This document shows positions 4,340 to 56,016 of a stretch of 64,000 bases of DNA, in pieces. The notes under the pieces were generated by a model. It saw only the letters and a program-made list of their open reading frames with translations. It was not told the DNA's origin and searched no databases. Both the position numbers and the translations under genes were made by a program. Position 1 is the first letter of the stretch. Each line of letters starts with the position of its first letter. Source of the DNA: an uncultured Bacteroidota bacterium (GTDB lineage Bacteria; Bacteroidota; Bacteroidia; Bacteroidales; UBA12077); assembly GCA_913055635.1 (NCBI GenBank), contig CAJXLK010000001.1, positions 96,626 through 160,625 of the forward strand, read 5' to 3'.

Positions 4340-4368
4340 AAGATGCAGGACAAGGTGTGATGTTCCGG

Positions 4369-7959: not shown

Positions 7960-8300
7960 AACAACGCGTTTGTTTTGTTGGTATAACCAAAATAAGAAAA
8001 ATTGCGGGAAAAGCGAAAGAAGAAGGCAAAGGAAGAGGAAGGAGGGAATAGGGTTCTATTGTTTTATGGTTGAAGGGTTAAGGGGTCGTTGTTGCGGAAG
8101 TTGCGACCGCAGGCTGTCACGCGTCAAATTTGAAACATAAAACGTTGCACCTAAAACTCCAGGCTAAGCACCAAATTTTAAGCAAAATTTCAATCTCCAA
8201 ATCTCAAACCGGTGACAACAGAGGATATCGGGTTTGGAATTTTCCCAATCGTCCCCCCTGGAATCCGGGGGTCTCTGAATAACCGTCAAGATGGGGGTGG

Positions 8301-8339
8301 TCTTTAAAGAAACCGCCGGGCTGGTGTCCAACCCGGCGG
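8301..8339 (-). terminator. Intrinsic terminator of the large secreted-protein gene (copy 2)
   Basis: Sequence identical to 4301-4339. Confidence 0.7.
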
Positions 8340-8368
8340 AAGATGCAGGACAAGGTGTGATGTTCCGG

Positions 8369-11959: not shown

Positions 11960-12268
11960 AACAACGCGTTTGTTTTGTTGGTATAACCAAAATAAGAAAA
12001 ATTGCGGGAAAAGCGAATTATCTTTTCCCGGCGCAACTTTTCGTTGCCTCTCAAGTTTTTCAGGATTTGGCATTAATTTTCCATAGATGCGGTGTCTGTC
12101 ATATGCATCATTCTCTTTATTGGGGCATTTATTGAGTGGTGGATCTTTTTTTCTGGGCTTAATAATCGCAGTGCGAGATGATGTTTTTTTGCAGATTGAT
12201 ATATGCGAACAATGTTGATTTTTTTGACTTCCTGGTGGATAATCGTTAGCTTTGAATATAAATCCGAA

Positions 12269-12475
12269 ATGATGAAGCGATTTGAGATCATATTGGCCCT
12301 GGTCCTGTTCATCTTGATGGTAATGCATCTGGTCTATTCGATTGACTACAGCCATCTTTTTACCACCGCCAACAAAGCAGGCGCCACCGGCGCGATGATC
12401 TGCCTGTTGGGGTTGGTATCGCTGTGGCTGAGCCTTCGTCAGGAGGCAGGCGAGCGGCCATCTGCCCGCCGGTAG
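12269..12475 (+). CDS. Small two-helix membrane protein (hypothetical)
   Basis: MMKRFEIILALVLFILMVMHLVY...GAMICLLGLVSLWLSL has two hydrophobic helices. No homology recognised. Confidence 0.3.
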   Translation: MMKRFEIILALVLFILMVMHLVYSIDYSHLFTTANKAGATGAMICLLGLVSLWLSLRQEAGERPSARR

Positions 12476-12510
12476 GCTCTTCCTTAGGGCCAACGAGAAT
12501 ACCGCCCCAA

Positions 12511-30427: not shown

Positions 30428-30591
30428 AATTTCTGGCTAATCACCCTTCCCTTTTGTTGGATCCTTTTTAACATTCATGCAAAGATATCATACGATCATC
30501 AAAAAAAGATCAACGATAAATAAATGTGCTTGTATAAAGTATAGACAATTTCATACATTTGTTGTTAGGGTCTTTTATATAATTCAAATCT

Positions 30592-31020
30592 ATGTCAAGC
30601 AATCCAAAATCGGAGTTCGAATCCACCAACACCAACAAACAGGCAGTCCGTCTGGAAATAGAAGCCACCAACAGGACGCCGGAGATTAAAATGGATGGAT
30701 CAAAAGGCCTCATCTCCATTAAAGGTGTTTCCATGCCAGCCAATGTCAATCAGTTTTATAGCCCGCTTTTGGAGCGGTTGGATCAGTACATGGCCAATCC
30801 CAAAGAGGACACCCGTGTGGTGTTTGATTTGGAATACGTCAATTCATCATCCTCGCAGATGATCCTGGCTATATTGTTCAAGCTCAAAACATTGGTTGAT
30901 AAGGGAAACAACCTGAAAATTGATTGGCATTATGTGGTGGAAGATGAAGACATTTATGAGACCGGAAAATCTTACTCTGAACTTTCGGGCATTACTTTTA
31001 ATTTTCATGAGCGTGAATAG
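30592..31020 (+). CDS. SiaC-like DUF1987 protein, paralogue A (142 aa)
   Basis: TPEIKMDGSKGLISIKGVSMPANVNQFY...DLEYVNSSSSQM...IDWHYVVEDEDI. Confidence 0.75.
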   Translation: MSSNPKSEFESTNTNKQAVRLEIEATNRTPEIKMDGSKGLISIKGVSMPANVNQFYSPLLERLDQYMANPKEDTRVVFDLEYVNSSSSQMILAILFKLKTLVDKGNNLKIDWHYVVEDEDIYETGKSYSELSGITFNFHERE

Positions 31021-31029
31021 GAGGAATTT

Positions 31030-31476
31030 ATGAGTGAAACGAACCATATCGGTTTGAAAAGACTGTATGAGCAGATCCGCGAAATACCAGGCAAAGATCG
31101 GGTAGAGATACCGCGGACCGAACGCACCCCCGAGATTGTATTGGATCGCTCGGGAGAAGAGGGCCGCATCAAATTTTTGGGGCGGTCCCTGCCGGATGAT
31201 GCCCGCAATTTTTACCGGCCTATACTAACCTGGATCGATGATTATTTTAAGAGTCCACTGGATTCGACAGTGATCAGTTTCGATCTGGAATATTTTAACA
31301 CCTCTTCTTCCAAAATGCTGCTGCAGATCATCCGTAAATTCCAAAAGCTGGAGGAGCAGAATAAGAACCTGAAAGTAGAATGGTATTACCTGGAAGATGA
31401 TGAAGACATTCTGGAATCGGGTGAAACTTTCCAGGATCTGACCAATATTGAATTTGATTTTATCAGTTATCAGTAA
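31030..31476 (+). CDS. SiaC-like DUF1987 protein, paralogue B (148 aa)
   Basis: TPEIVLD...IKFLGRSLPDDARNFY...DLEYFNTSSSKM...VEWYYLEDDEDI. Confidence 0.75.
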   Translation: MSETNHIGLKRLYEQIREIPGKDRVEIPRTERTPEIVLDRSGEEGRIKFLGRSLPDDARNFYRPILTWIDDYFKSPLDSTVISFDLEYFNTSSSKMLLQIIRKFQKLEEQNKNLKVEWYYLEDDEDILESGETFQDLTNIEFDFISYQ

Positions 31477-31497
31477 AAATATTTTAAAGGAACAACT

Positions 31498-31929
31498 ATG
31501 GGAATGCTAGCCACCAAAGAGATTATCAAAGAAGTCAATGATGCGGTAAACAAGGAAGAAGTTTCCATACAGGGGACAGCAGAAACACCTGAGATCAAGC
31601 TTGATGCCAACAATGGGGAGGTTAAGTTTTCGGGCCGGTCCATGCCGGAAGATGCCAAAAGCTTCTATGCACCTCTCAAGCAATGGTTGGAGGACTACAG
31701 CCAGAATCCCCGCCAGGGCACCCTGGTGACCTTTGCCTATGAGTATTTCAACACGGCATCCTCTAAAATGATCATGGAATTGATCGAGCGGGTGAAGATG
31801 ATTCAGGAGAACGATCCGGAGTTAAGGGTTGAGTGGCATTATCTGGAGGATGATGACGACATGCTGGAAGCCGGCGAAGATTACGCCGACATCACCGGCG
31901 TAGATTTTGAATTTCATAGTTACGAATGA
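31498..31929 (+). CDS. SiaC-like DUF1987 protein, paralogue C (143 aa)
   Basis: TPEIKLDANNGEVKFSGRSMPEDAKSFY...YEYFNTASSKM...VEWHYLEDDDDM. Confidence 0.75.
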   Translation: MGMLATKEIIKEVNDAVNKEEVSIQGTAETPEIKLDANNGEVKFSGRSMPEDAKSFYAPLKQWLEDYSQNPRQGTLVTFAYEYFNTASSKMIMELIERVKMIQENDPELRVEWHYLEDDDDMLEAGEDYADITGVDFEFHSYE

Positions 31930-33166
31930 TCAGCGGCCTGCCTTTTCGATATAGTCTTTTTTCTATCTTCTTTCCTTTTTGCCCGTTGTAGAACCATACC
32001 GGTCCATCGGGCAAATTTTTTCGATGCATCATGATGCGCTGCAAGTTGCCTTTGCGGTTACAATAATGCCAGGGACCTTCTTTCAGGTCGTTCCAGTAAT
32101 GGCCGTAGGATTTGATGTGGCCGGAAGGGTGAAAAAATTTCCAGAAACCGGTGGCTTCTCCTTCCTTATATTGGCCTAACTGTTTGATGCGGCCGTTGGG
32201 GTGGTATATTTTCCAGTAGCCGGTGTATTTTCCTCTCAGATACTGCCCTTTTGCGTGGAGGGTGCCATTGGGGTAGTAGGTTTTCCAGGGTCCTGTTTTT
32301 TTGCCTTGCTGCGAATACCGGCCCTTTTCCTTGAGGTTGCCATTGGGATAGAAGGTTTGGTAGGGGCCGGTGATCTTTCCCTGGTTATAACTGCAGCGGA
32401 TCATGATGTGGCCGTTGGGGTGGTAACCTTTGAAGGGGCCATGGAGTTGGCCCTTTTTATAAAGGCAGATTCGCTGCAGGTGGCCGGTTTTTTTATAATA
32501 CACCCTGAGGGTATCGCTAAAACTGCCATTGATTTTGGTTCCCCGGTAATTCAGGCTGCCGTCGTCGTAATACTGTTTCCAGGTGCCATGGGGTTGGCCT
32601 TGTTGGGCCTGGTATTTTCGGTAACGGGTGCCATCGGGGTACCAGACCTTTACCCAGCCCTTCTGGATGCCATTGTGATAGTGGGAGAGGGATTCGAGGG
32701 TATCGTCCTTGTAGAAGGTTTTAAAGGAACCCTCCAGTTGGCCGTTCTGGTAGCGGCCTTTTTGTTTGATGTGGCCGTTTTTGTAGTAAACCTTGTAAGG
32801 CCCGTGGCGTCTGCCCTTTTCAAAGGTCAGTTTTTTCTTGAGTTCACCTGTTGGATAATACAGGTGCCAGAGGCTGTCGGTGCGGCCCTGGCGGAAGAAT
32901 CCGCGCTGGCCAGGGCGGCCGTTGGGATGGTAGTATCGGTAGGGGCCATCTTTGATCGTATCGCCGGAGGTGATTTGCAGGGTAAAGACTTCCTTGAGGT
33001 GGCCGTTGGGGTAATATCTTTTAAGCGAGTCGGTTTTCTGAGCCAGGCAGGCACAGGTTGCCCCATAAACACCCAACAGCAGCAGCGTTAAAAGGATTCG
33101 CGCCGGTATTTGCTTATTCGACTTCAATGGTAATCTGAGTCCCCTCCAATGCTTGACTGCTTCCAT
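31892..33166 (-). CDS. MORN-repeat-variant (YwqK-like) repeat protein with signal peptide
   Basis: More than 12 repeats of the Y(Y/H)PNG.(L/I)K..G.Y..G...G.W pattern. The 3' end overlaps paralogue C by 38 nt (convergent). Confidence 0.8.
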   Translation of the reverse strand: MEAVKHWRGLRLPLKSNKQIPARILLTLLLLGVYGATCACLAQKTDSLKRYYPNGHLKEVFTLQITSGDTIKDGPYRYYHPNGRPGQRGFFRQGRTDSLWHLYYPTGELKKKLTFEKGRRHGPYKVYYKNGHIKQKGRYQNGQLEGSFKTFYKDDTLESLSHYHNGIQKGWVKVWYPDGTRYRKYQAQQGQPHGTWKQYYDDGSLNYRGTKINGSFSDTLRVYYKKTGHLQRICLYKKGQLHGPFKGYHPNGHIMIRCSYNQGKITGPYQTFYPNGNLKEKGRYSQQGKKTGPWKTYYPNGTLHAKGQYLRGKYTGYWKIYHPNGRIKQLGQYKEGEATGFWKFFHPSGHIKSYGHYWNDLKEGPWHYCNRKGNLQRIMMHRKNLPDGPVWFYNGQKGKKIEKRLYRKGRPLIIRNYEIQNLRR

Positions 33167-33917
33167 AATCCAAAATGGCCGAAAGGGAATAGTTGCCCGG
33201 TTTAAGTTTATGGGCCGGCAGGGTCAATTCAACATTGCGCGTAGATTGGGGGTAAGCGGTTATTTCAACCGGTTCATATTTTTTTTCCTTAAGGGTTTTC
33301 ATATGGGAGGCAATAAGGTATATTTCACATTTAGTCATGGTGTTACCCAGGTTATCGATGTTCACGTTGAACTTTCTCAGCGAATCGGCGGATTGGGTAA
33401 GTTCCCTCAGGTTGCTTATTTGAACCCTTGTGCTGGTTTGGTTGCGTGGTGTGTAGGAGAGTTCGACGCTGATGCGGCCATACAGGTTAAGGCCTGCGCT
33501 TAATTCCTTGTCCGCCGCCAGGGAAGTTTGTTCCTTGGCTGAGGTGACGTTAAGAATGCCCCATTTTGAGGTAAAATCATCATTGGGAGCCTGCAGGGTA
33601 ACTTCAACGCTTTGGGCCTGATTCGGATTGAGTTCCAGATAGGAAGGATTCAGGGTAATCCATTCGGCAATTGAATTTTTAGAAGCCCCGGGACTCAAAA
33701 TTTTTCGATCTCCATCTTTATATACCAAATAATCTTTTAAGGATAAAACCAGAGAGGCCTTTTGGTTGCCATGATTTTTAACCGATATCATTTTGGTCTG
33801 GGTTTCCCCGGGGTTGGCAGTAAAATTGAGTTTGATCGGAGCCACCTCAAAACTCTGGGCCATGGTATATAAACTGGCTAAAACCATAACCAGGCTGAAA
33901 AATAACTGCTTGCTCAT
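33114..33917 (-). CDS. Secreted two-domain Ig/beta-sandwich-like protein; PapD-chaperone-like pattern (tentative)
   Basis: Signal peptide MSKQLFFSLVMVLASLYTMAQ. FEVAPIKLNFTANPGETQTKMISVKNHGNQ and WITLNPSYLELNPNQAQSVEVTLQAP resemble periplasmic chaperone / NEW3-type Ig strands. Confidence 0.4.
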   Translation of the reverse strand: MSKQLFFSLVMVLASLYTMAQSFEVAPIKLNFTANPGETQTKMISVKNHGNQKASLVLSLKDYLVYKDGDRKILSPGASKNSIAEWITLNPSYLELNPNQAQSVEVTLQAPNDDFTSKWGILNVTSAKEQTSLAADKELSAGLNLYGRISVELSYTPRNQTSTRVQISNLRELTQSADSLRKFNVNIDNLGNTMTKCEIYLIASHMKTLKEKKYEPVEITAYPQSTRNVELTLPAHKLKPGNYSLSAILDYGSSQALEGTQITIEVE

Positions 33918-34040
33918 CTTTTATTTTGCTTTGATGGATTTACAAATATATAAATTTAATCATCGGATTCTAATGTGTCGATTAAAATAAGTCAAAGTCA
34001 ATGACTAATTGATCACAAAATTAAAAAGATTGATGTAAAA

Positions 34041-36095
34041 ATGTATCCAATAATGCTATTTAGCAGTATAATTATAGGATTTTTATTAGTTTTATCCTTA
34101 AAAGAATTGGTTTTGAACAGACAGAATAACATCAAACTACTTTTAACCCTGGCTGTGGTGCTGCTGGCTCAAAATGTGCTGGCTCAAAATATTAAGCCAT
34201 TGAACCAAGAACAACAGCAAAGGGTAGAAAAACTTCAGGAAATCATAGAGTATTCAAAAAATCGCGGGGAATGGAAAGATGCGATTTCTTCCCTGAACAA
34301 GATTGCTTTTCTTTATTGGGATAATGGCAATACCAGCAAAGCGGTTGAATATTTCGAAAGGGCTGTTCCATTGAATCAAAAAATTGGGAACAAGGAGAAC
34401 ATAAAGACGATATACAGCAATATTGGGTTGATATACACCGACATGGAAGAACTTGATCCGGCGTTGAATTATTTCCGGAAAAGTCTAAAGGTACGTCGGG
34501 AGTTGGGCAACAGCAAGGAGATCGCTTCAGGTTTAATTGATGTTGCCTATATTATGGGATTAAAGGGGAACTATCGCCAAGCCAATAAGCGCCTGGATGA
34601 AGCCCTGAAGATTGCCCTGGAAAATGAATATGGGCGTATGACGGTAAACATTTATAATCAGTTGGCCAAGAATTATGAAAAGATTGGAAACATTAAAAAA
34701 TCCAATGAATATAAGAAGAAGTATGCCTCCTACCAGGAACACCTGGAGACCCAGTCAATGAAACAGGAATACCAGGAGCAGCAGGAGCAGAGTGAGGCCA
34801 AGCTGCGCAAGGCCAGGTTAAAGCGTCAGAAGGAGCAGGCTCAGCACCAATTGGCTCAGCTTCGTTATGAACGCCGTCAGGATTCTATACAGGAGGTGGT
34901 CCAGGAGAAGCAGGATTCATTGACACGGGCTAGGCGGCTGGATAGTCTCAAGCAGCTGAGGATCAATCAGCAGGAACAGAAGATGGAATTGCAGGAGGCA
35001 CGTCTTGAGCGCCAGGAAGCACAACAGCGGGTTCAGCAGATGATCATCTATTCGGTAGCCGGAGGCTTGCTTTTGGGTATTGTACTGTTGGTGGTGATGT
35101 ACCGGAGCAATCGGGCCAGAAAAAAAGCCAATCAGGCTCTGGCCGAAAAGAACCGGGAGATTGAAAAGAAAAGTGAACAGCTTCAGGAAGCGTTCAATAA
35201 AATTGAAGATCAGAATATAAAGATTACCCAAAGCATTACATATGCTCAGGAGATACAGAAAGCCCTCTTTCCGCCTAAGGAAAATCTGACTCATTATATT
35301 CCGGAGTCATTTATTTTTTTCCAGCCAGTGGATTTGGTCAGTGGAGATTTTTATTGGTTCAAAGAATTATCTGAACACAGCGAGATTCGTCAGCAGATGC
35401 ATAAATATGCCCACCAGGAACATGCCGGTGCTATCGATGGAGGTGATGATAAAAATGGCGATGACTATCCACCGACCGACAACAGCAAGTTTGTGGTTTC
35501 AGCAGTAGATTGTACCGGCCATGGCGTACCCGGGGCATTTATGTCGATGATTGGCTATAATTTGCTGGATGAGATCACCCAGAGTGGGGTCTCCCAGCCC
35601 GGTCGGATTCTGCGGGAATTGCATAAGGGCATTCGCCGCACGCTCAAACAGCATGAGACCAATAACCGCGATGGAATGGACCTGTCCCTTTGTGTAGTTG
35701 ACCGACAAGCCAATCGGGTGGACTTTGCCGGGGCTAAAAACCCGCTGGTTTATATTCAGGATGGCGAAGTACATGTTATTAAAGGAAACCGGGTGCCGGT
35801 AGGGGGCATGCAGAGTGAAAAAGAACGCTATTTCTCCGAATCATCCGTTCAGGTCGATCGCCCCACCTGGTTCTACATTTTTTCCGATGGCTATACCGAC
35901 CAGTTTGGCGGGCCTAAAAATCGGAAATATCTATTGAAAAACCTTAAACAACTTTTACTCGATATTCATCAAAAACCGATGGAAGAACAAGAGCAGATGC
36001 TCTCGCAGAGCCTGAATAATTGGATGGGAGATCGCGAAAATCAAATCGACGACGTCCTGGTCATTGGTTTCAAACTCGAGCCATCTGTGTTTTAG
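34041..36095 (+). CDS. TPR - coiled coil - TM - PP2C/SpoIIE serine phosphatase (684 aa)
   Basis: N-terminal TM segment, then TPR-like repeats (YSNIGLIY...AL.YF.KSL), a Q/E-rich coiled coil, a TM helix IIYSVAGGLLLGIVLLVVMY, and PP2C motifs SGDFYWF, DCTGHGVPGAFMSMIG and FSDGYTDQFGG. Confidence 0.85.
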   Translation: MYPIMLFSSIIIGFLLVLSLKELVLNRQNNIKLLLTLAVVLLAQNVLAQNIKPLNQEQQQRVEKLQEIIEYSKNRGEWKDAISSLNKIAFLYWDNGNTSKAVEYFERAVPLNQKIGNKENIKTIYSNIGLIYTDMEELDPALNYFRKSLKVRRELGNSKEIASGLIDVAYIMGLKGNYRQANKRLDEALKIALENEYGRMTVNIYNQLAKNYEKIGNIKKSNEYKKKYASYQEHLETQSMKQEYQEQQEQSEAKLRKARLKRQKEQAQHQLAQLRYERRQDSIQEVVQEKQDSLTRARRLDSLKQLRINQQEQKMELQEARLERQEAQQRVQQMIIYSVAGGLLLGIVLLVVMYRSNRARKKANQALAEKNREIEKKSEQLQEAFNKIEDQNIKITQSITYAQEIQKALFPPKENLTHYIPESFIFFQPVDLVSGDFYWFKELSEHSEIRQQMHKYAHQEHAGAIDGGDDKNGDDYPPTDNSKFVVSAVDCTGHGVPGAFMSMIGYNLLDEITQSGVSQPGRILRELHKGIRRTLKQHETNNRDGMDLSLCVVDRQANRVDFAGAKNPLVYIQDGEVHVIKGNRVPVGGMQSEKERYFSESSVQVDRPTWFYIFSDGYTDQFGGPKNRKYLLKNLKQLLLDIHQKPMEEQEQMLSQSLNNWMGDRENQIDDVLVIGFKLEPSVF

Positions 36096-36300
36096 GTTTT
36101 GAAATACAGGAAAATGTAACTTCAGATCAAAACTTTCGTAAATATTTATAGAATAGAAATTTTGACTGAAAAGGGCATGAGACAGATCAACCAGAATAAA
36201 TAGTTGATGGATTGCAGTGCCAGTAGTTTGATATTCAAATATAATTTACTAATTTAGCCACCATTCGGAATTATTAAGCCAATTATAAAATCATCGTCCT

Positions 36301-36921
36301 ATGAAAAAGTTTGTTTTACTCATGTTAGCAGTGCTGCTTGGATATCAGGTTACCTCTTTCGCTCAGGCAGTCGATGACAGGGCCGTTGTTCCTGTTTCTG
36401 TTACCCTGAATTCGATTTTGCGGTTGAATATTGAATCCGGTGGTAACGTAGAGTTCAATTTCAATACCCTGGAACAATATAAAAATGGCATCAGTGGTAT
36501 TGGAACAAATGATCAGTATTCCACCAAAATTACCATTGCTTCTTCTGTTGATTGGGATCTGGAAATGGGGGCTGAGGATGGCTCTTTGATCAGTACCGAT
36601 GATACCACCAGTGGGGCCGGAAGTATGGATTTAGGTTATATTACCTATGAAGTTCAGTATACGGGGAGCGATTATTCCACTGGCGAAATTACCATACCCA
36701 CCAGTAGTGGTCCCAGCGAATTGAAACAAATTTCTTCTTCCACAGAAGTGATTCAAAAAGGAAGTGCGAGCAATGCCGGAGACATCAACAAGAACCAATT
36801 CCGGATTGACTGGGCTTGTGGGAGCATGGCGGATAATGCCACCGACAATTTGATAGGTTCTAGTCTCACGGGAGGGAGATATTCCACCAATGTCTTCTTT
36901 AAGCTTAAACCCCACAACTAA
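36301..36921 (+). CDS. Secreted beta-rich protein, paralogue 1 (206 aa); candidate surface-fibre subunit
   Basis: Signal peptide MKKFVLLMLAVLLGYQVTSFAQA. Shares ESGGNVEFNF, DLGYITYEV and a C-terminal RYSTNVFFKL with the next gene. Confidence 0.6.
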   Translation: MKKFVLLMLAVLLGYQVTSFAQAVDDRAVVPVSVTLNSILRLNIESGGNVEFNFNTLEQYKNGISGIGTNDQYSTKITIASSVDWDLEMGAEDGSLISTDDTTSGAGSMDLGYITYEVQYTGSDYSTGEITIPTSSGPSELKQISSSTEVIQKGSASNAGDINKNQFRIDWACGSMADNATDNLIGSSLTGGRYSTNVFFKLKPHN

Positions 36922-36950
36922 TTGCGGGAAGTTTAATAAGCATGGATTAT

Positions 36951-36993
36951 TAAGTCAAACTATATTACATTATTTATAATATAGTTTGACTTA
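36951..36993 (+). terminator. Perfect 17-bp-stem hairpin between the two paralogous secreted-protein genes (attenuator or terminator candidate)
   Basis: taagtcaaactatatta (36951-36967) / taatatagtttgactta (36977-36993) with a 9-nt loop. No strong T-run follows. Confidence 0.55.
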
Positions 36994-37018
36994 TTCATAA
37001 TGGCAATTCAAATGATTG

Positions 37019-37555
37019 ATGAAGCATCATACTGGCAAATTTTTAATCAGTCTGATTATTTTTTTATTCATACACCCTTTGGTTCATGCTCAGGATGGGT
37101 CGTACCAACTAACCGTTGAAGCAGGTGGGGCCATCGAATTCAAAGTTTATTCCCTTCGGCATTATTACCAGGGCATGACTTACTCCAACCGAACCACCAT
37201 GCGGATTCACTGCGATACGCTTTCCGGAAATCAACATACCGACGTGTGGTATTTAGGAGTCAAAGCGCAAGATGCTTCATTTTACAGCAGTTATCCTGGA
37301 CGCACCCTTGATTTAGATTATGTTACCGTGGAAATTTTTGACGGGGGCGGCATAGATGCCTTCAACTCCGGTGAATTAACATCTGGTGAAGTTACATTGA
37401 ATGGCTCGAGTTATGCACCTTTGGTTGAAGGTGGAGATGCCGGAAATTATAAGATTGATTTGACATATCATCTGGATTCGGTGACCGGTCAGCTTCCAGG
37501 TTACTATAACACCAATTTCTTGTTCAAGATGGATACAGTGCCTTTCCCATGGTAA
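37019..37555 (+). CDS. Secreted beta-rich protein, paralogue 2 (178 aa)
   Basis: Signal peptide MKHHTGKFLISLIIFLFIHPLVHAQ. EAGGAIEFKV, DLDYVTVEI and YYNTNFLFKM match paralogue 1. Confidence 0.6.
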   Translation: MKHHTGKFLISLIIFLFIHPLVHAQDGSYQLTVEAGGAIEFKVYSLRHYYQGMTYSNRTTMRIHCDTLSGNQHTDVWYLGVKAQDASFYSSYPGRTLDLDYVTVEIFDGGGIDAFNSGELTSGEVTLNGSSYAPLVEGGDAGNYKIDLTYHLDSVTGQLPGYYNTNFLFKMDTVPFPW

Positions 37556-37556
37556 A

Positions 37557-40500
37557 ATGCTTATGCAAAATTGCGCGAAATATGGCATTATTTTTCTCCT
37601 CCTCTTTCTGAGCACAAGCACCATTATCTTCGGGCAAGTGCTGAATGGTGGCAACAGCCATAAAAATATTACCGCGCAATTTGTTAGGGAAGACATCAAA
37701 ATCAAACCGCAGACCCCTTTTTTTAATGTTTTAAAGATTTCCAACGGCTCTGACCGGCAAAGGTTTGTCAACCTGACCTATGAAATACCGGTGGGTTGGA
37801 GCCTGATTTCCGACCAGGATAATAGGATTAATCTCCCCCCCCATGATACCGTCTCGGTTCCCCTTCGGGTTTCGCCCAACCAGCAGGTTAAAGGAGAAAT
37901 TGGCTATTCGGTGATTGCTTCCCTGACCAACCGTTCCGGGGAGCCGATCACCACTTCTTATTGTTTTATCAAAGTCCCCCGGCAAAGTGATTTGCGCTTC
38001 AGGCCCTTAACCCGGGTCACCTACATCAACCAGCAAAAACGCACCGGTAGCTTCTCTTTTCGTCTGATTAATGAAGGAAATGTCGACGAGGTGGTTTATC
38101 TGAATTTTACTTCCACCCCGGATGTGGACATGAAAAAGGAGGTCAATAACTCCTTTTCCTCTAATCTGGTAGTCCCCGCCCGTTCGGATACCACCCTGTC
38201 ATATCAGGTGACGATCGATAAAAAACAAGCCCAGAAATCACTGTATCGGATTAATTTGACAGGACATACGGAATATTCCCGATTCAATTCTTCTTTTTGG
38301 TTTAAAAACCTGGTCAGTCGCTTTCAATACGAAAAGCCCTCCAGCGAAGTGCCATTGATTGTGGAATTGAATATGGAAAATTTATTTAGTGACCAGGGCA
38401 GTTATTTTTCTGGTTCGGCCCAGGGCAACCTTTTATTTTCAAACGACCGGGAAATCAAGTATTATTTTTTAAAAATGCCTGACCGCAGCCCCCGAACCAA
38501 TTTTTTAAATACCAGCCGGATTTTCCTTAATTATAACACCCCCACTTTTAATGCTAAATTAGGCAACCGGATCCCCTTTCGTCTGAGAACCGGATATGGT
38601 AAAGGGGCCGCCTTGCAATATAAACAATTCAACAATTTTAAAATTCAAGGCAAATATACCCGCAATGAATTTCTTCCCATCAATAACTATGGGTTGAGCA
38701 CCGACTTTAATCTTTTTAAATCTCGGTTGCAGACGCACACCAACCTGGAATACAGCCATAACCTGCGCACTGATGAACAAATTATGTTGGGGTTGTTCAG
38801 CAATCGTTTAGTTATTCAGGACGAACACAATATCGAAACGGAGTTTGGAATGAGCAGTAAAGCCCGGAACCTTTTTAACGGCAATCAGCTGGGCTTGCAT
38901 TATCGGCTGAAATACAACGGAGAAATCGATGATTTAAGGTTCCGTTTTAGAAACCGCTATAATTCAGACGATTACTACGGAAGTTTTTATGGAAAGAACG
39001 ATATAAAGTTTAATGCCAACTATGATTATAAAAAGGGTTACCGGTTCAACCTTAATTTTTTTAACTCCAGGTATCAGCCTTCCTCGGTATATCGTAATGA
39101 ATCCTCTTCCGATTATCGTTTGCAACGAAATATTAATTTTCGCACCAGTAAATTGCTGAATAATTCGCTATCCCTTTTTGGCCAGGGTGGGTATGAATAC
39201 TTTAACTCCAATGCCTTTTATACCAACAATCAGACAAGACATCCGTTCATCACCAACAGTGGATATTTGGAAATCGGGGGCAGGTTGAACCTGAATACTT
39301 ATGATCGGATTTCCACTTCTTTTAAAGGGGGATATACCTTTGCCACCCAATATGAAGTGAACCAGACCAATGAATCTCAAAAAAGGGCTCTGGCGAATCG
39401 GGAGCAAAGTTTTAACGGGATATTCAACCTGAATTATTACAGCCCCAATTGGGGAGTTTTTTTCCGCTACAACTATGGCCCTTACAATGGCAATCAGTAT
39501 TACACCTATTTGTATTCGGGCAATTTCAACCAACTTTTGCGTTTAATGCCTTACTACCGGGATTACATCTATAAGGACATCATCCAGTTTGATTCACGGA
39601 TGAATTATATGTACAGCATCAATCGTCAGACCCATCGGCTGAACTGGGGCAATGAGGTGAAGTTTCATTTGAATTATGGACTGATGTTGAGGCTGATCGC
39701 TAATTTTACCCTGCAGTCTACAATGGGCGAAAGCCAGGAAATGCGGATTCAGGAGAAGCAACAATATACCTATTCCAATTCTTATTTTGAACTTAGGTTG
39801 CAAAAACGTTTTGACTGGAACCAACCCCGAATGAAATATTACAACCTGAACGTTAATCTTTTTAAGGACCTGAACGGCAATCTTAAGCGGGATGGCAATG
39901 AGCCGGGAGTCAAAAACGTATTGGTAAATATTGAACGTGTGGATGCCACAGAATTGGACACCTTTGATGTAAGTTATGAGCAATCGGGCAATTTGGTGAA
40001 CAACCGGTTGCTATCGGGCATGCAGGGTCGGATTCGGTATGAAAATATGCCGCAGGGAGTTTACCGCTTGCGCTTGAAGAATGTGGGCAAAGAGGGCGGG
40101 AAATTTACCGCCGACCAGCAAGAAGTATTGATCAATATGGATAAAGACCGCACGGTGGATATTCCCTACCTGGAACGCAACAAGATCTATGGGCGGGTTA
40201 TTCTGAACCGAAGCAAACTGTCCAACCTGGGGCCCCTTGATAAGAGCAACATCAAAGTGACAGCCGTCGACAGCAAAGGGCGTAAGACCTCCACATTGAC
40301 CGATAAAAAAGGGAAATTTGTAATTTATGCCCCCAGTGTGGATAAGTATGATGTATATATCAATAACATCTTCAAGGAACACTTTGATTTGAGAAAAAAC
40401 CACTATAAGGTACAACTTAACGGATACAAACAGTTTGAAGTGAACTTTATTTTTGATGAGAAACGTCGGGAAATCAATTTCACCCCAAGTATGAGTGAGA

Positions 40501-41138
40501 CCGATGTGGAGGTCAAAAGCGTGAAGCGTACCAATCTCACCGGGACAATAAAGGATGAAAATACCCTTCAGCCGGTACGGGCTACCCTGGAGGTGGTCGA
40601 CAATAAGACCGGAACAACGGTTGAGACGACCCATTCCGATCCGGAGACCGGCCGGTTCAGCATGAGTTTCATGACTGGCAACAACTATTCGCTGATCGTT
40701 TCAGCCCAGGGATACTGGCTCTACACAGAAAAGCTGGATTTGGACCAAATGCTGACCATCCAGGATGTGGAAAAGGAGATCCTGCTGAAAAACATCATGA
40801 TTGGCTCGCGCCTCGACCTGGAGAACCTGCAGTTTGAACCCGGCAGCGCTGAAATACCCAATGATGCCTATCCCGAATTGGACCGGTTGATTGAACAGCT
40901 GAAGGACAATCCCAATGTGCGCATCCAGATTGCCGGCCATGCCGATGCCCTCGAGCAACTGGATCATCCCAATATTTCCGAAGACCGAGCCAAGGCCGTG
41001 GCCAAATACATCATGAAGAATGGTTTCAGCAACATTGAATACGTTGGTTATAAAGATAAGAAACCGGTAGCTCCCAATGATTCTCCTGAAAACCGTGCCA
41101 AAAACCGAAGGGTCGAGATTACTGTGGTAGATAAATAA
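37557..41138 (+). CDS. 1193-aa outer-membrane protein: Ig-like (NEW3/CARDB-type) N-terminal domains, Tyr/Asn-rich beta-barrel-like middle, CarboxypepD_reg-like repeats, C-terminal OmpA domain
   Basis: The start is 1 nt after the previous stop. NLTYEIPVGWSLIS...VSVPLRVSP (NEW3-like). The central ~450 aa are rich in Y/N/F/R with alternating patterns. IYGRVILN...TDKKGKFVIY and LTGTIKDE...DPETGRFSM (CarboxypepD_reg-like). OmpA box LQFEPGSAEI...IAGHAD...NRRVEITVV. Confidence 0.8.
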   Translation: MLMQNCAKYGIIFLLLFLSTSTIIFGQVLNGGNSHKNITAQFVREDIKIKPQTPFFNVLKISNGSDRQRFVNLTYEIPVGWSLISDQDNRINLPPHDTVSVPLRVSPNQQVKGEIGYSVIASLTNRSGEPITTSYCFIKVPRQSDLRFRPLTRVTYINQQKRTGSFSFRLINEGNVDEVVYLNFTSTPDVDMKKEVNNSFSSNLVVPARSDTTLSYQVTIDKKQAQKSLYRINLTGHTEYSRFNSSFWFKNLVSRFQYEKPSSEVPLIVELNMENLFSDQGSYFSGSAQGNLLFSNDREIKYYFLKMPDRSPRTNFLNTSRIFLNYNTPTFNAKLGNRIPFRLRTGYGKGAALQYKQFNNFKIQGKYTRNEFLPINNYGLSTDFNLFKSRLQTHTNLEYSHNLRTDEQIMLGLFSNRLVIQDEHNIETEFGMSSKARNLFNGNQLGLHYRLKYNGEIDDLRFRFRNRYNSDDYYGSFYGKNDIKFNANYDYKKGYRFNLNFFNSRYQPSSVYRNESSSDYRLQRNINFRTSKLLNNSLSLFGQGGYEYFNSNAFYTNNQTRHPFITNSGYLEIGGRLNLNTYDRISTSFKGGYTFATQYEVNQTNESQKRALANREQSFNGIFNLNYYSPNWGVFFRYNYGPYNGNQYYTYLYSGNFNQLLRLMPYYRDYIYKDIIQFDSRMNYMYSINRQTHRLNWGNEVKFHLNYGLMLRLIANFTLQSTMGESQEMRIQEKQQYTYSNSYFELRLQKRFDWNQPRMKYYNLNVNLFKDLNGNLKRDGNEPGVKNVLVNIERVDATELDTFDVSYEQSGNLVNNRLLSGMQGRIRYENMPQGVYRLRLKNVGKEGGKFTADQQEVLINMDKDRTVDIPYLERNKIYGRVILNRSKLSNLGPLDKSNIKVTAVDSKGRKTSTLTDKKGKFVIYAPSVDKYDVYINNIFKEHFDLRKNHYKVQLNGYKQFEVNFIFDEKRREINFTPSMSETDVEVKSVKRTNLTGTIKDENTLQPVRATLEVVDNKTGTTVETTHSDPETGRFSMSFMTGNNYSLIVSAQGYWLYTEKLDLDQMLTIQDVEKEILLKNIMIGSRLDLENLQFEPGSAEIPNDAYPELDRLIEQLKDNPNVRIQIAGHADALEQLDHPNISEDRAKAVAKYIMKNGFSNIEYVGYKDKKPVAPNDSPENRAKNRRVEITVVDK

Positions 41139-41149
41139 AATTTTTGAGT

Positions 41150-41536
41150 ATGAGAAAGTATGGCCTTTTTATTGTAGGACTCCTTTTTATCTTTTTTTTG
41201 ACCCAATGCGAACAGGAGAAGGAATTTAAATATGATGTTCATTTATTAACCGGTAAACATTGGGGTATACCTGAAGTACTGGAGAGGGGACCCTCCAGTG
41301 AACCATGGCTTCCCGGTTCCCCCACCGTTTTTTATAAGGATGGCCGCGTTTCTTTCGGCGGTCGATTGGATTCATGGCAGGTGCTCGATTCGGAAAGCCT
41401 GTTGATTCAACAACGGAAAGAAAACTGGCAGGTGCTCGAGCTGACCGAAAACAAGTTGCTGGTCGAAGTCCTCAGCCATCCCGAAGGGCAGTTCATCGTT
41501 CGGGCCGTTTTTTATAACCAGGGCCCGGCCGAATGA
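41150..41536 (+). CDS. Lipoprotein (hypothetical)
   Basis: MRKYGLFIVGLLFIFFLTQC with a lipobox Cys. Confidence 0.6.
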   Translation: MRKYGLFIVGLLFIFFLTQCEQEKEFKYDVHLLTGKHWGIPEVLERGPSSEPWLPGSPTVFYKDGRVSFGGRLDSWQVLDSESLLIQQRKENWQVLELTENKLLVEVLSHPEGQFIVRAVFYNQGPAE

Positions 41537-42182: not shown

Positions 42183-42689
42183 ATGGAACAAAAAAACGAA
42201 AAGACCAATTCTTATTTAACTTTTAAACTGGGCGAGGAAGAATTTGGGGTCCACGTCAGTCAGGTCATCAACATTTTGGAGATGACCCGGATTATTGAGG
42301 TGCCCCGCACCCCGTCTTATATGAAAGGGGTGATCAACCTCAGGGGGACGGCCCTGCCGGTGATCGATACCCGTCTGCGTTTGGGCCTGGAAGAGGCTAA
42401 ATATAGCCATAACACCTGTATTGTTGTACTGGATCTTGAGCATCAGGGGGAGACCTACCATGTGGGTGCCATTGTGGATGAAGTATTGTCTGTGGTTGAG
42501 ATAGAAGCCGGACAGGTTGAACCCCCGCCGGCCATTGGCGATGAAAAAGGCCCGGACTTCATCTTTGGTATGACCCGCATTGACGATCGATTTACGATGT
42601 TGTTGGATATGCAGGGGATGATGGATGAGCGGGAGATGGAAAAGATTTCGCAAGCCGCCGGCGAGCGGCAAAGCAAAGTAGCCTCATAA
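42183..42689 (+). CDS. cheW: Chemotaxis coupling protein CheW
   Basis: [18 protein letters not shown]...[31 protein letters not shown] strong AGGAGG (42173-42178) precedes the ATG. Confidence 0.9.
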
Positions 42690-42721
42690 AGCATTTACGT
42701 TACACACAAAAAAAGAGCAAA

Positions 42722-44875
42722 ATGAACTGGAAAGATTTAAAACTGGGGGCAAAACTGGCGATTGGTTTTGGCCTGCTTATTCTGATTTCAATGATACTTG
42801 GCGGACTGGCCGTGTATAACATGTCCAATGTCTCTAAGAATTCGAATTATCTGGCCGATGAATACATCCCGGAAGTGGATCTGGCCAGTACCCTGGAGCG
42901 CAATGCAAGGCAAACGATGTACAACATGCGGGGATACAGCCTTTCGGAAAATGAGGGGTATCTGCGTGAAGGCCGCAATTATTTGGGGAAGGTGGAGAAT
43001 AACATCGCTGAGGCCCGTCGCCTGGCCCGTGAGACTTCCCAGCTGGACAAGCTCAATTCGGAGATCGACCATGTTGAGAACAACCTCAACGAGTACAAGG
43101 GCCTGGTCGATCAGACGGTTACCCTGAACAACGGGCTGCAACAGGAGCGCAATCAGATGGATGCTTCGGCCGACCAGTTTATGGAGGCCTGCTACAATTA
43201 CCTGGAGAGCCAGAACCGGCAACTTCGTGAGGAGATTGCCAATAATGCTTCAGCCCAGGCTTTTACCGAGCGGCATAAAAAGATCACCTGGATCAATGAC
43301 ATCATTGATGCGGGCAATGCCGTGAGGGTGAGCAATTTCAAACATCAGGCCAAAAGAAATCCGGATGCTTTTCGCAAGGCCCTCAATGATTTTGACATAT
43401 CCGCCACCATGGATAAGCTTAGGAACGTGACTTACCTGGAGGCCGACAAGGAAGCGCTGGATCAGATACGTCAGTCGGCCGATGGGTATACCCAGGCCAT
43501 GAACACCTTCATCAATGATTGGGAAAAGCGCAATCAGTTGAACCAGGAGCGCGACCAGGTGGCCACCCGGGTGCTTGAGTCTACCCAGGCCGTTGCCAAT
43601 GCCGGGATCAAGACCACTTCCAACATTGCCGACCAGGCCGTGAAAATGCTCTCGCAATCGAGCAACATCATGATAGCCGGGCTTATTCTGGCACTGATCC
43701 TTGGGGTGATTCTGGCCATCACCATTACCCGCACCATTACCAGACCATTGAATCAGGGTGTAGCTTTTGCTCAGGAAGTGGCCAATGGCAACCTGGAAGC
43801 TCAGGTGGATGTTCACCGCAATGATGAAATCGGCACCCTGGCCGATGCCCTGCGCAATATGGCCTCCCGCCTGCAAGGCGTTGTCCGCGAAATTCGGGCA
43901 GGCGCTGAAAACATTGCTTCAGCCAGCGAGCAGATGAGCTCCAATTCCCAGGAAATGTCTCAGGGCTCCAGCGAACAGGCTTCTTCCGCTGAAGAGGTCT
44001 CTTCCTCGATGGAAGAGATGAAATCGAACATCCAGCAGAATACGGATAATGCCCAGCAAACCGAAAAGATTTCTAAGAATGCAGCCGAAAGCATCAAGAA
44101 AGGCAATGAGGCGGCTCAGAATTCAGTTCAGTCGATGAAGGAAATTGCTGAAAAGATTTCCATCATTAATGATATTGCTTATCAGACCAATATCCTTGCC
44201 TTGAATGCAGCTGTCGAAGCCGCCCGGGCCGGTGAGCACGGCAAAGGATTTGCTGTGGTGGCCGCTGAGGTGCGTAAACTGGCTGAACGCAGCTCCGAAG
44301 CAGCCAACGAAATTGATGAGAAGTCTAAAGCCGGCGTTCAAATTTCTGAAGAGGCCGGCCAGCAACTTAGTGAAATCGTGCCTGAAGTCGAGAAAACCTC
44401 TCAGTTGGTTCAGGAAATTACCGCAGCCAGCAATGAGATGAACAGTGGCGCCGATCAGGTTAACAATGCCATTCAGCAGTTGAATCAGGTCACCCAGCAA
44501 AACGCCTCCTCATCCGAAGAACTGGCATCCAACGCAGAAGAGCTCTCCAGCCAGGCCGATCAGCTTAAACAGGTTATCAGCTTCTTTAAACTCAATGACA
44601 CCAATGGCCAGGGACAAGGCGCCTCTAAGGGTCATAAGCATCTTGATTTTGGCCACATGAGCCAGCAATCCAATCAGAACCAACAAAGCGGCCCCCAAAA
44701 CGGACAGGGCCAGCAAACGAGTCAGCAGCATCAACCCCGCCAGCAATCAGCCCGGGCCTCCAATCAAAACGCAGGCAAGACCTATTCATCGGGTCAACAA
44801 CAAAACAACGGCAACGGGGTTGACCTGAAAATGTACAACCACGACCAGCAGGACAAAGATTTTGAGAATTACTGA
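42722..44875 (+). CDS. Methyl-accepting chemotaxis protein (2 TM, periplasmic helical sensor, HAMP, MA domain, long Q/N/G-rich tail)
   Basis: [21 protein letters not shown]. Signalling hairpin [40 protein letters not shown]. The tail ends ...[10 protein letters not shown]. Confidence 0.92.
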
Positions 44876-44938
44876 TATAGGACTGTTTTTGGCTTAATGT
44901 TCCGTCTTTAGTTCATACTGGTTTGGTTTTTTGGATGC

Positions 44939-45008
44939 CTGCCCCAACTGCTGCCTTTAAAAGATTATGTAACGCTTTTAAGGTGGCTGTTGGGGCAGCT
45001 TCTTTTAG
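44939..45008 (+). terminator. Long imperfect hairpin plus T-tract after the MCP gene
   Basis: ctgccccaac (44939-44948) pairs with gttggggcag (44989-44998), with inner pairing cctttaaaag/cttttaagg, followed by cttctttt. Confidence 0.55.
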
Positions 45009-45209
45009 AGGGGCAGGAAAAATATCCCTTTTTGGGGTGCACTTCAAAGGCCCAATAATGAGCTGTTAAGGTTAATGGGAGCTGGATTGACCCGTTTAAC
45101 GGGCAAGATGAACTCAAAAATATTTTGTGGGATGTTTACCGGCGAATCAACTCACTTTCCACTTTTTATTGGCCGGCCTGTTGGATTGAAATATTTATTT
45201 GTTGGTTGT

Positions 45210-47234
45210 TTACCGCTTGATCAATTTGCTTTCCACCATTTGAATGAATTCATCCTGTTTTACTGGTTTGGAGATATAACCGTCGAAGCCCTCTTCCAGA
45301 AACTGCTGCTTATTATGTTCATAGGCATAAGCTGTAATGGCAATTACCGGGATTTGCGGGTTGAATTGTTTGATCTGTTTAAGGGCAGCCACCCCGTCTA
45401 AAACAGGCATTTTGATGTCCATTAAAATCAGGTCGATCGCTTCAGCATTTTTCACAGCTTCGACGGCCTGTGCGCCGTTTTCTGCGTGTTTTATCCGGGC
45501 ATGGGTGCCTTTGATGAATTCATTCAGCAGGAAATAGTTGGTGGCATCATCTTCTGCGATCAAAATCGTCTTGCCGGACCAGTCGGATGAGCGCCCTGGT
45601 GTTGTTTGGCCGGTGCTTTGCTGGTCTTTTGGACTTTGCCGGGGAATTTTAAAAACCACCGTGGAACCATTGTTCTGAGATGAATGGAATTTAATGGACC
45701 CGCCCATGGACCGGACCAGTCCCCGGGCGATGGAAAGGCCAAGGCCCAGGCCTTCGTACTGACGGGTTATGCCATGATCCAGTTGCCTGAACCTTTCAAA
45801 GATCAATTCCCTGGAATCCCGGGGCACGCCTATGCCGGTATCGCGGATGTAAAAATCCAGGTTGCCCCGGCTGTCTGCTTCATATCCCATTTCAATATAG
45901 CCTGAATGGGTGAATTTTATTGCGTTATCGATGAGTTTGGTGAATATCTGGTGCATTTTCTGATGGTCCAGCCTGATCCAATCATTTTGGTCAGGCAGAG
46001 GTTTACGGATTTTCAGTTGAAGGTTTTTTTGCGCTTTTTCCATTTTGTAGCGGGCCTGCTCAGCCAACTCATCGATCAGCCCGTTCAGGGAGAAGGGTTG
46101 GGAATTGATTTGAATTTGATTGGCTTCAATATAGGATACATCGAGGATGTCATTGAGAATTGACAGCAGTTTGTCACCGCTTTGGCGGATGCTGGTGATG
46201 AATTCATGTCTTTTGGCTTCATCGGGCGATGTCTCCTTCAGCAGATCGGCAAAGCCCAGAATGGCATTCAGGGGGGTTCGGATTTCATGGGAGAGGTTGG
46301 CCAGAAAAGCCGATTTCAGGCTGGCGCTTTCCTCTGCCTTTTCCTTGGCTTCCAGCAATTCCTTTTCGTACTGCTTCCTTCGGGTGATGTCGCGGGCCAC
46401 CGTAAGGATGGCCGGCCGGCCTTTGAAGGTGATGCGGTTGGCATTGATTTCAGTGGGAATTTTTTGATTGTCACGAGTGATGTGCACGGTTTCACCTCTG
46501 AAATGTTTTTCTTTCATTACCCGATTGAATATATCCGGGGCTTTAGAAGCATTCTCAGGGGTGTCGATGTCGATGGGGGTCATTTGCAGCAATTCCTCTT
46601 TGCTGTAGTTCAATCGCCTGGTGGCCTCATGGTTCACTTCCAGCATGTTGCCCTCCGGGTCATGAATGAAAATGGCATCGAGCATCGAGTTGAATAGCGA
46701 TTTAAATTTTTGTTCATTTTGACGGGTTTCTTCTTCTGCCTGTTTTCGGTTGATATAAACCGCCAGCTCATTGGCCACTGTCTCCAGCATGTTGCGTTCT
46801 TCCTTGAGGAAGGGGCCTTCTTCCAGGGCAGGCATTTCCATGAGGTAATAAATTTCAATTTTCAAGGCCTCGCATATCGCATCTACCTGAGCATGAACAC
46901 TTTGCTTCCAATTCGTTGGTTTGTAATTGTCGGTGGTATAAACCTTTTTCCCGCAGGTAATCCGCCCGCAACAGATGGTGGGATAAAGGTAGGATTGGGT
47001 CAAAACACGAATGGATTGTTTCAAAACATAATCCGTGGAATTATCGGGATGATTGGTCAAACGGGCAATCTGGTAAATCCCGGCAAGCTCCTTCTTCCTC
47101 TCGGTCAACTGGAATTGTTGGTCCTCTAATTCTTCTCGAAGTTCCTTTTGTTGGTTTTCCGCCTGGCTCAGTTTCGAGCGGAGCTCCTGAATTTCATCGA
47201 TCAATTCCTCTTTGCTGTCGTTTTTTGCTTTCAT
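45210..47234 (-). CDS. Hybrid sensor histidine kinase / response regulator (coiled coil, GAF/PAS-like, PAS, HisKA, HATPase_c, REC)
   Basis: H-box SHEIRTPLNAILGF. N/G boxes DNAIKFT, DTGIGVP and GLGLGLSI. REC ILIAEDD...DLILMDIKMPVLDG...KP. Confidence 0.92.
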   Translation of the reverse strand: MKAKNDSKEELIDEIQELRSKLSQAENQQKELREELEDQQFQLTERKKELAGIYQIARLTNHPDNSTDYVLKQSIRVLTQSYLYPTICCGRITCGKKVYTTDNYKPTNWKQSVHAQVDAICEALKIEIYYLMEMPALEEGPFLKEERNMLETVANELAVYINRKQAEEETRQNEQKFKSLFNSMLDAIFIHDPEGNMLEVNHEATRRLNYSKEELLQMTPIDIDTPENASKAPDIFNRVMKEKHFRGETVHITRDNQKIPTEINANRITFKGRPAILTVARDITRRKQYEKELLEAKEKAEESASLKSAFLANLSHEIRTPLNAILGFADLLKETSPDEAKRHEFITSIRQSGDKLLSILNDILDVSYIEANQIQINSQPFSLNGLIDELAEQARYKMEKAQKNLQLKIRKPLPDQNDWIRLDHQKMHQIFTKLIDNAIKFTHSGYIEMGYEADSRGNLDFYIRDTGIGVPRDSRELIFERFRQLDHGITRQYEGLGLGLSIARGLVRSMGGSIKFHSSQNNGSTVVFKIPRQSPKDQQSTGQTTPGRSSDWSGKTILIAEDDATNYFLLNEFIKGTHARIKHAENGAQAVEAVKNAEAIDLILMDIKMPVLDGVAALKQIKQFNPQIPVIAITAYAYEHNKQQFLEEGFDGYISKPVKQDEFIQMVESKLIKR

Positions 47235-53532: not shown

Positions 53533-53589
53533 GTGGCCCAATGCTTTTAGATGTCCTTGTTTTAAAATGAATATTGATCTCACCTCTCA

Positions 53590-55891: not shown

Positions 55892-56016
55892 TTATTTATA
55901 TTTGCCTATTTTCGTATGGTTGTAAACAATATTTTTAGATTTTTTGTTTGAAACACTGCCTGTTTTTTTTAAACAAGTAGGATGAACGGATATAAGTTAC
56001 CAAAAAATCCGCTTGC

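Follow-up and report, generated by a model that had tools for sequence, protein, structure and literature searches.

Three tandem genes encoding diverged members of the SiaC family (paralogues A, B and C) were found beside a gene for a SiaA-like sensor phosphatase in a 64,000-nucleotide stretch of an uncultured Bacteroidota bacterium (Bacteroidales, UBA12077; assembly GCA_913055635.1, contig CAJXLK010000001.1, positions 96,626 to 160,625 of the forward strand). This whole 64-kb stretch is called the window below, and coordinates are those of the window. On balance we favor, by modest preference, the reading that A, B and C are phospho-switch proteins that work with this PP2C phosphatase and with a kinase encoded in trans. 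A further proposal, which we put forward tentatively and would not presume, is that a marine and sediment Bacteroidota subclade has wired a Sia-type switch into a locus for TLP-1-type fibrils. Such a switch would be composed of a periplasmic TPR sensor phosphatase and a growing set of two or three non-redundant SiaC proteins, its kinase being encoded in trans, and the SiaC proteins would control fibril production through a target other than a c-di-GMP cyclase. The strongest clue to function is that the array and the phosphatase are set in a conserved cluster of envelope genes, a context which a preliminary description of this DNA had missed. The array and its candidate promoter are as follows (aa, amino acids; nt, nucleotides).

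30554..30561, plus strand: candidate promoter TACATTTG, matching TAnnTTTG, 31 nt upstream of the start of A
30592..31020, plus strand: SiaC paralogue A, 142 aa, PF09345 at E 3.6e-33
31030..31476, plus strand: SiaC paralogue B, 148 aa, PF09345 at E 6.5e-36
31498..31929, plus strand: SiaC paralogue C, 143 aa, PF09345 at E 4.6e-36

Each of the three proteins was spanned end to end by the Pfam family PF09345 (SiaC, formerly DUF1987), with scores of 114-124 bits (cut-off 24.5 bits) over profile positions 1-119/120. Thus the three tandem SiaC/DUF1987 paralogues proposed in the preliminary description were recovered by the hidden Markov model (HMM) search, with E-values of 4e-33 to 5e-36. Under the NCBIfam SiaC equivalog (NF038265; cut-off 150 bits) A, B and C reached only 70-73 bits; they are therefore members of the family and not orthologues of the Pseudomonas protein. 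The pairwise identity among them is 35-40%.

The shared motif quoted in the preliminary description is real, and the phosphosite motifs read from the sequences are YVNSSSSQM in A, FNTSSSKM in B and YFNTASSKM in C, with Thr kept in B and C and Ser in A as had been described. Moreover, a profile of the three proteins matched the structures of Pseudomonas aeruginosa SiaC (6kko/6k4f) at E 1.2e-14, and in this HMM alignment the Thr or Ser of A, B and C was in register with the Thr of LNTSS in 6kko, i.e., the Thr68 position. Thr68 is the residue of SiaC that is phosphorylated by SiaB, and N67, T68 and S69 dock on the coiled-coil stalk of SiaD (PMC8457831), in agreement with the phosphorylation site that had been named for LNTSS in the preliminary description. 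At this docking triplet A carries N-S-S, B carries N-T-S and C carries N-T-A. DUF1987 is related to STAS only structurally (PMC8457831), and the three paralogues would be cytoplasmic SiaC-family phospho-switch proteins of a STAS-like kind.

The three genes are consecutive plus-strand open reading frames (ORFs) with intergenic gaps of 9 nt and 21 nt, and an AGGAGG-like ribosome-binding site precedes B. The consensus TAnnTTTG is the -7 promoter element of Bacteroidota sigma-A, and TACATTTG is by its sequence a candidate promoter of an A-B-C operon.

The second main component of the locus is the phosphatase.

34041..36095, plus strand: SiaA-like sensor phosphatase, PF13424 and PF07228, 2.1 kb downstream of the array

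A PP2C gene had been noticed 2 kb away from the array; it indeed lies at 2.1 kb, and its product proved to be SiaA-like. The protein is laid out as a signal or anchor segment, TPR repeats, a long Q/E-rich coiled coil, a transmembrane (TM) helix and a C-terminal cytoplasmic PP2C (SpoIIE) domain at residues ~360-684. The only sequence match of its PP2C domain in the PDB was 6k4e, the PP2C domain of SiaA (E 3e-30), and the motifs DCTGHG, SDGYTDQ and DDV of the metal site are intact. Against the SiaA equivalog it scored 166, below the cut-off of 700.

Related loci (L002-L040) were collected via a one-genome-per-species scan, which yielded 22 loci, and further ones were added by identity look-ups. 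The related genomes are uncultured metagenome-assembled genomes (MAGs) or metagenome contigs throughout, the 22 scanned loci all being from uncultured Bacteroidota except for one mislabeled MAG. For C, the search returned 107 clusters of homologous proteins, some 60 of which were at least 50% identical, while the locus itself was present in a single metagenome run (DNA). Over its TPR, TM and PP2C parts the window phosphatase is collinear with an 822-aa phosphatase at L010, whose operon also encodes a SiaC and a doubled SiaB kinase, and orthologues of the window phosphatase are found at L004, L028, L032 and L040. That SiaC-family proteins are the substrates of this PP2C is thus suggested by two independent kinds of gene linkage.

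Neither a kinase nor a cyclase of the Sia system is encoded nearby, as the preliminary description had proposed for the window: i) a Pfam scan of all non-overlapping window ORFs of at least 90 aa detected no GGDEF, HATPase_c_2 or DUF6272 domain; ii) a SiaB-family HMM, built from six DUF6272 proteins and run over all six translated frames of the window, matched nothing at a threshold as loose as E<=10; iii) kinase and cyclase were not found either in 10 kb further to the left of the window, taken from an ENA contig, which extended the covered DNA to ~74 kb. On the right, the extension yielded no more than an 887-bp contig. A canonical siaB-siaD pair just outside the window, which would have accounted for the array conventionally, was likewise not found, as no SiaB-family or RsbW-type kinase and no GGDEF occurred within ~40 kb upstream and 32 kb downstream of the array.

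A gene for a DUF6272 protein is located directly upstream of many other Bacteroidota SiaC genes. DUF6272 is the same family as NCBIfam NF038262 (“SiaB family protein kinase”), with the GHKL N-box and GLGL motifs kept, and SiaB-SiaC(-PP2C) operons were found in other Bacteroidota at L008, L010, L011, L017, L020 and L036. The contig of L011 (CALRIU020000005.1) is labeled Hydrocarboniphaga daqingensis (Pseudomonadota), and yet its operon is nearly identical to those of the Flavobacteriales loci L008 and L010; the label is probably a binning or labeling error in the MAG. Among the neighbors scanned or annotated, no GGDEF gene stood beside any of the Bacteroidota SiaC or SiaB loci fetched. Therefore the missing cyclase, although confirmed locally, is not a peculiarity of this locus, since the other Bacteroidota operons are likewise without GGDEF.

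These findings bear on the possibility that the system is a conventional SiaABCD pathway, with siaB and siaD elsewhere in the genome and the three SiaC proteins serving as redundant activators of a GGDEF enzyme. An unlinked SiaB kinase is plausible, and the docking residues N-(T/S)-(S/A) do resemble N67/T68/S69 of P. aeruginosa SiaC. On the other hand, the SiaC equivalog scores fall at less than half of the 150-bit cut-off, GGDEF is missing both within ~74 kb here and beside the Bacteroidota loci fetched, and GGDEF proteins are in general scarce in Bacteroidota. We thus consider a conventional pathway highly improbable.

The missing kinase was viewed differently once other genomes were considered. 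A search with the SiaB-family domain profile returned 3760 protein clusters, and one of them (P0189, at L036) belongs to a SiaB(x2)-SiaC operon on the same 637-kb contig as an orphan SiaC triple (L007), ~550 kb apart. An orphan array of SiaC genes and a SiaB kinase not linked to it can thus coexist in one genome, this precedent being a single example from outside the clade to which the window paralogues belong. Hence the observation that no kinase is visible held for the window but not as a sign of a kinase-free genome, and by analogy an unlinked kinase is the likeliest explanation for the missing local one.

The history of the array was traced in a maximum-likelihood tree of 44 SiaC-family sequences, from which L040 was left out, its copies being compared by pairwise BLASTP. 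The window paralogues fell within a clade of 24 sequences (support 92/95), the members of which have in common an N-terminal extension of ~22 aa that is absent from the kinase-adjacent 124-aa SiaC proteins. No kinase was found within 10-20 kb at any locus of this N-extended clade. Within the clade, array position equals orthogroup: orthogroup C was supported at 96/87 and orthogroup A at 100/99 with the longest branches, while A and B were sister groups (83/90). The duplications thus took place before these lineages diverged. C is conserved best, at 65-69% identity to its orthologues, B is intermediate in value (50-53%) and A is the fastest-evolving (40-69%). A recent tandem duplication, or chance, was ruled out as the origin of the array by the 35-40% identity among the paralogues and by orthogroups that track array position in six lineages.

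Copy number varies from one to three: triples were found at L003, L004, L006, L028/L029, L030/L031 and L040, two copies at L032/L033 and a single copy at L005, L009 and L012, while L007 is a distant triple of 124-aa SiaC proteins. The sister lineages L040 and L032 differ in this respect, with three SiaC copies at L040:8821-10432 and two at L032:9490-10432. L032 has B and C only, and the first L040 gene is 61% identical to its own C but 38% to window A (BLASTP), so that the additional gene of L040 derives from C and is no orthologue of A, the third copy having been gained independently. Judging from these sequences, the common core is a B-C pair, or C alone, with at least two independent gains of a third copy. 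The preliminary description had read the threefold array as three outputs or a relay; the array of three stands, but a hard-wired design of this kind is weakened by the independent third copy in two lineages and by a copy number of one to three.

A phosphorylatable Ser or Thr is kept in every A, B and C orthologue aligned: Thr in all C, Thr or Ser in B (Ser in most) and Ser in A. The position is free to change when not needed, as indicated by the SiaC homologues of L013 and L014, which carry Ile instead of the phosphosite Thr (YFNIISSK). These two genes (L013:9983-10381 and L014:8318-8716) and a third (L023:9962-10408) lie directly downstream of pairs of a LytTR regulator and a His_kinase (PF06580) protein. 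The arrangement suggests a LytTR-linked SiaC subfamily that may work without Ser/Thr phosphorylation and be tied to two-component systems.

Retention of the phosphosite bears on a second alternative, according to which the N-extended SiaC proteins have lost phospho-regulation and act as kinase-less adaptors, i.e., constitutive STAS-like binders or a scaffold, perhaps as a hetero-oligomer, the PP2C having a different substrate. Consistent with such adaptors are the lack of a kinase in ~74 kb here and in 10-20 kb at the loci of the clade, the clade-specific N-terminal extension that the kinase-linked 124-aa proteins do not have, and the change of the docking Asn to Asp in some A orthologues. However, the Ser/Thr is retained in all A, B and C orthologues even though Ile at L013/L014 illustrates that the position can vary, linkage to a SiaA-like PP2C with its catalytic motifs kept persists, and an unlinked SiaB kinase has a precedent in the genome with the orphan triple. 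Kinase-less adaptors are therefore quite improbable in our judgment.

The array and the phosphatase are accompanied by six envelope genes, two of which lie convergently between them.

31892..33166, minus strand: exported MORN_2-repeat protein, 424 aa, PF07661 at E 9e-41, convergent with C and overlapping its end
33114..33917, minus strand: secreted protein with two Ig-like domains, 267 aa, AlphaFold2 model with a predicted local distance difference test (pLDDT) score of 65
36301..36921, plus strand: secreted TLP-1-like subunit, 206 aa, of a family of 223 representative clusters
37016..37555, plus strand: a further secreted subunit, 179 aa, distantly paralogous to the 206-aa one (hhalign probability 90%, E 1.5e-6)
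37557..41138, plus strand: envelope protein, 1193 aa, with Pfam CarboxypepD_reg and a C-terminal OmpA peptidoglycan-binding domain
41144..41536, plus strand: small lipoprotein, 130 aa, with an LTQC lipobox, at the end of the conserved cluster

The 206-aa protein provides the link to fibrils. A 61-member profile of its family matched only 9ikj and 9ikk in the PDB (E 0.003-0.008), with the alignment (E 0.003) covering TLP-1 residues 7-69, the N-terminal strands. At the structural level, its AlphaFold model (pLDDT 88.7) had two significant Foldseek matches, TLP-1b and TLP-1a (9ikk/9ikj; E 2.4e-6 and 4.8e-6, TM-score 0.53, with 0.53/0.47 for the match at E 2.4e-6), and the next matches were archaeal cannulae, TasA and CS20 pili, all donor-strand fibers. 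TLP-1a and TLP-1b are fibrils that were solved by CryoSeek (9ikj, 9ikk) directly from water of the Tsinghua Lotus Pond and are built by donor-strand exchange; their producers are not known, and their assembly genes are not described in that paper (PMC11494351). By its model, the 206-aa protein shares with them the fold and the alignable N-terminal donor-strand region. It differs from them in sequence (15-16% identity) and in protomer size (~184 vs 236 aa mature). On its profile and structural matches, the 206-aa protein is homologous to the donor-strand-exchange subunits TLP-1a/b and is predicted to form fibrils.

The other members of the cluster can be placed around this subunit. For the 267-aa protein, the best Foldseek matches of its model were WxLIP (9i25/9i1y, E 1e-10), followed by the chaperones CfaA, Caf1M and FimC (E 1e-7), at TM-scores of 0.3-0.4, and its Pfam matches to Cep192/WxLIP were weak. 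The 1193-aa protein, with orthologues of 1184-1198 aa at L028, L032 and L039, has a signal peptide and a long Tyr/Asn-rich middle, which was read as a beta-barrel by eye only; its PDB matches were confined to the OmpA domain. It is a candidate assembly platform. As the Pfam and PDB searches matched it to no usher family, a classical chaperone-usher assignment is not supported. A small gene at the position of the lipoprotein is also present at L032 and L034, a positional match only. The conserved and so far unannotated cluster at 33114-41536, with its counterparts at L028/L034, L032 and L039, is a candidate biogenesis locus for TLP-1a/b-type fibrils.

Gene order across the related loci runs as SiaC (two or three copies), MORN, 267-aa protein, PP2C, ~200-aa protein, ~180-aa protein, ~1190-aa OmpA protein and small lipoprotein. 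The full order was the same in the window, at L028/L034/L035 and at L032/L033; L004 and L040 matched it up to the PP2C gene, where the fetched DNA stops, and L003 and L009 matched in part. The order of SiaC, MORN, 267-aa protein and PP2C was kept down to 50-53% identity of C, with differing flanks. Genes for MORN_2 orthologues adjoin the SiaC genes at L003, L004, L009, L028, L032 and L040, and at L009 a single C is kept together with the MORN and 267-aa genes. Upstream, the flanks are unrelated to each other: MFS in the window, a diphthamide-synthase-like gene at L028 and PHO4 at L032/L040. The MFS transporter and a GAF protein upstream of the array were rejected as partners, being conserved only in the closest relative (L002).

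Such synteny has to be weighed against a third alternative, that array and cluster are unrelated neighbors: the array would be independent, its proximity a gene order inherited within one order-level lineage, and its phosphatase, kinase and target would be encoded elsewhere. The promoter-like element of its own and the short intergenic gaps would suit an independent array, as would three observations at other loci: i) at L030/L031 a stretch of 6 kb, containing mnmA and rpsF-rpsR-rplI, lies between the array and the cluster; ii) the arrays of L006 and L007 are surrounded by housekeeping genes; iii) at L039 the fibril cluster comes without SiaC. Against it, the adjacency survives completely different upstream flanks, SiaC and TPR-PP2C are direct operon partners in other Bacteroidota, and L009 retains C with the MORN and 267-aa genes. 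We regard mere neighborhood as unlikely.

Several of these points nevertheless weigh against the favored reading of a phospho-switch tied to the fibril cluster: i) the kinase that it calls for was not found within the distances searched on either side of the array; ii) the housekeeping genes at L030/L031 separate array and cluster, and the L007 array stands alone apart from MORN genes; iii) L039, the locus of a distant member of the fibril-subunit family (31% identity) with three small subunit-like genes, 1198-aa and 243-aa proteins, a separate OmpA protein and TPR/MORN_2 proteins, lacked both PP2C and SiaC over the 17.8 kb read, so that the regulatory link is confined to one subclade; iv) apart from the SiaC proteins and the PP2C catalytic domain, every product of the cluster has a signal peptide or a lipobox and is thus exported, which leaves no cytoplasmic target visible in the cluster; v) part of the synteny may simply be shared ancestry. 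Our conclusion is that the fibril cluster came first and that a single subclade later added the PP2C/SiaC module to it for regulation.

With this history in mind, the phospho-switch would operate in the following way. The periplasmic TPR/coiled-coil sensor would read a signal from the cell envelope and control the cytoplasmic SiaA-like PP2C, which would dephosphorylate the Ser or Thr at the Thr68 position of A, B and C; a SiaB-family (DUF6272) kinase encoded elsewhere in the genome would re-phosphorylate them. The unphosphorylated paralogues would bind a partner through their N-(T/S)-S face. This partner would be neither a diguanylate cyclase nor encoded in the cluster, and by analogy with SiaD it may be a cytoplasmic coiled coil. 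The diverged paralogues would probably differ in affinities or partners, like the RsbR paralogues of the stressosome. Given the place of the module within the fibril cluster, its signal or its response most likely concerns fibrils; as a regulatory add-on it may either control fibril production or report the state of fibril assembly.

Compared with SiaABCD of P. aeruginosa (PA0172-PA0169; structures 6k4e for SiaA-PP2C, 6k4f for SiaB-SiaC, 6kko for SiaC and 7e6g for SiaC-SiaD), the locus shares a SiaC-fold protein with Ser/Thr at the Thr68 position, a membrane sensor PP2C that is nearest to SiaA and, likely, the logic by which unphosphorylated SiaC binds its partner. It differs in several respects: i) two to three diverged SiaC proteins, each N-extended by ~22 aa, stand in place of one; ii) neither SiaB nor SiaD is adjacent, and the context is an envelope fibril cluster; iii) sensing would be via periplasmic TPR repeats and coiled coil instead of the N-terminal module of SiaA; iv) the equivalog scores are far under the cut-offs (70-73 of 150 for SiaC and 166 of 700 for SiaA).

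A second comparison is with the SiaB(x2)-SiaC-(TPR-PP2C) operons of other Bacteroidota, with which the locus has in common the SiaC family, the TPR-TM-PP2C layout and the lack of a GGDEF partner. In those operons a single 124-aa SiaC is translationally coupled to a doubled kinase, whereas here no kinase is present in cis, the SiaC proteins are multiplied and N-extended, and two convergent envelope genes separate them from the phosphatase. The RsbR/S/T stressosome, RsbU/V/W and SpoIIAA/AB/E likewise combine STAS-type phosphoproteins, a GHKL-type Ser/Thr kinase and PP2C phosphatases, and in the stressosome several STAS paralogues (RsbR family) feed inputs into one pathway; unlike in the Rsb and SpoIIA switches, no sigma or anti-sigma factor is linked at this locus. 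At NCBI the proteins of Bacteroidota already go under “SiaB family protein kinase” or “SiaC family regulatory phosphoprotein”. In the literature searched, work on SiaC/DUF1987 was confined to Pseudomonas, where these proteins turn a c-di-GMP cyclase on or off and belong to the control of biofilms, and none was found on DUF1987, DUF6272 or SiaC in Bacteroidota. What is new here is that SiaC proteins, multiplied and N-extended, are linked to a SiaA-like sensor phosphatase with no kinase encoded in cis.

Other features of the window lie outside this system. At 42183-47234 a gene for CheW (168 aa) is located beside one for a methyl-accepting chemotaxis protein (MCP; 717 aa; 4HB, HAMP and MCPsignal domains), with no CheA in the window, and a convergent PAS-HisKA-HATPase-REC hybrid kinase gene adjoins the pair. 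Chemotaxis-type genes are unusual in Bacteroidota. The CheW-MCP pair, at 42-45 kb, was rejected as part of the system, as it is not conserved downstream of the cluster at L034/L035. At 52819-57519 there is a carotenoid gene set (lycopene cyclase, phytoene synthase and two phytoene-desaturase-type oxidoreductases), which fits a pigmented marine Bacteroidota, and a fatty-acid-desaturase/hydroxylase-like gene is found at 58172-58849. Near the left end, 4254-8253 and 8254-12253 repeat each other exactly in tandem, with a period of 4000 bp, and two giant minus-strand ORFs there (4369-7959 and 8369-12493), which have no Pfam match, are 100% identical over 1195 aa. Given the round 4000-bp offset and the complete identity, this duplication looks like an artefact of assembly or of window building rather than biology.

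What specialists would not expect is the link to a cluster for TLP-1-like fibrils, and this link makes two open questions testable. With thousands of SiaB- and SiaC-family genes in Bacteroidota, the locus offers a conserved context for asking what the Sia switch controls in this phylum. If the proposal is true, TLP-1a/b would gain a genetic home, made up of subunits together with a chaperone-like protein, a giant platform anchored by OmpA and accessory MORN proteins, and the cyclase-less Sia modules of Bacteroidota would gain their first candidate output.

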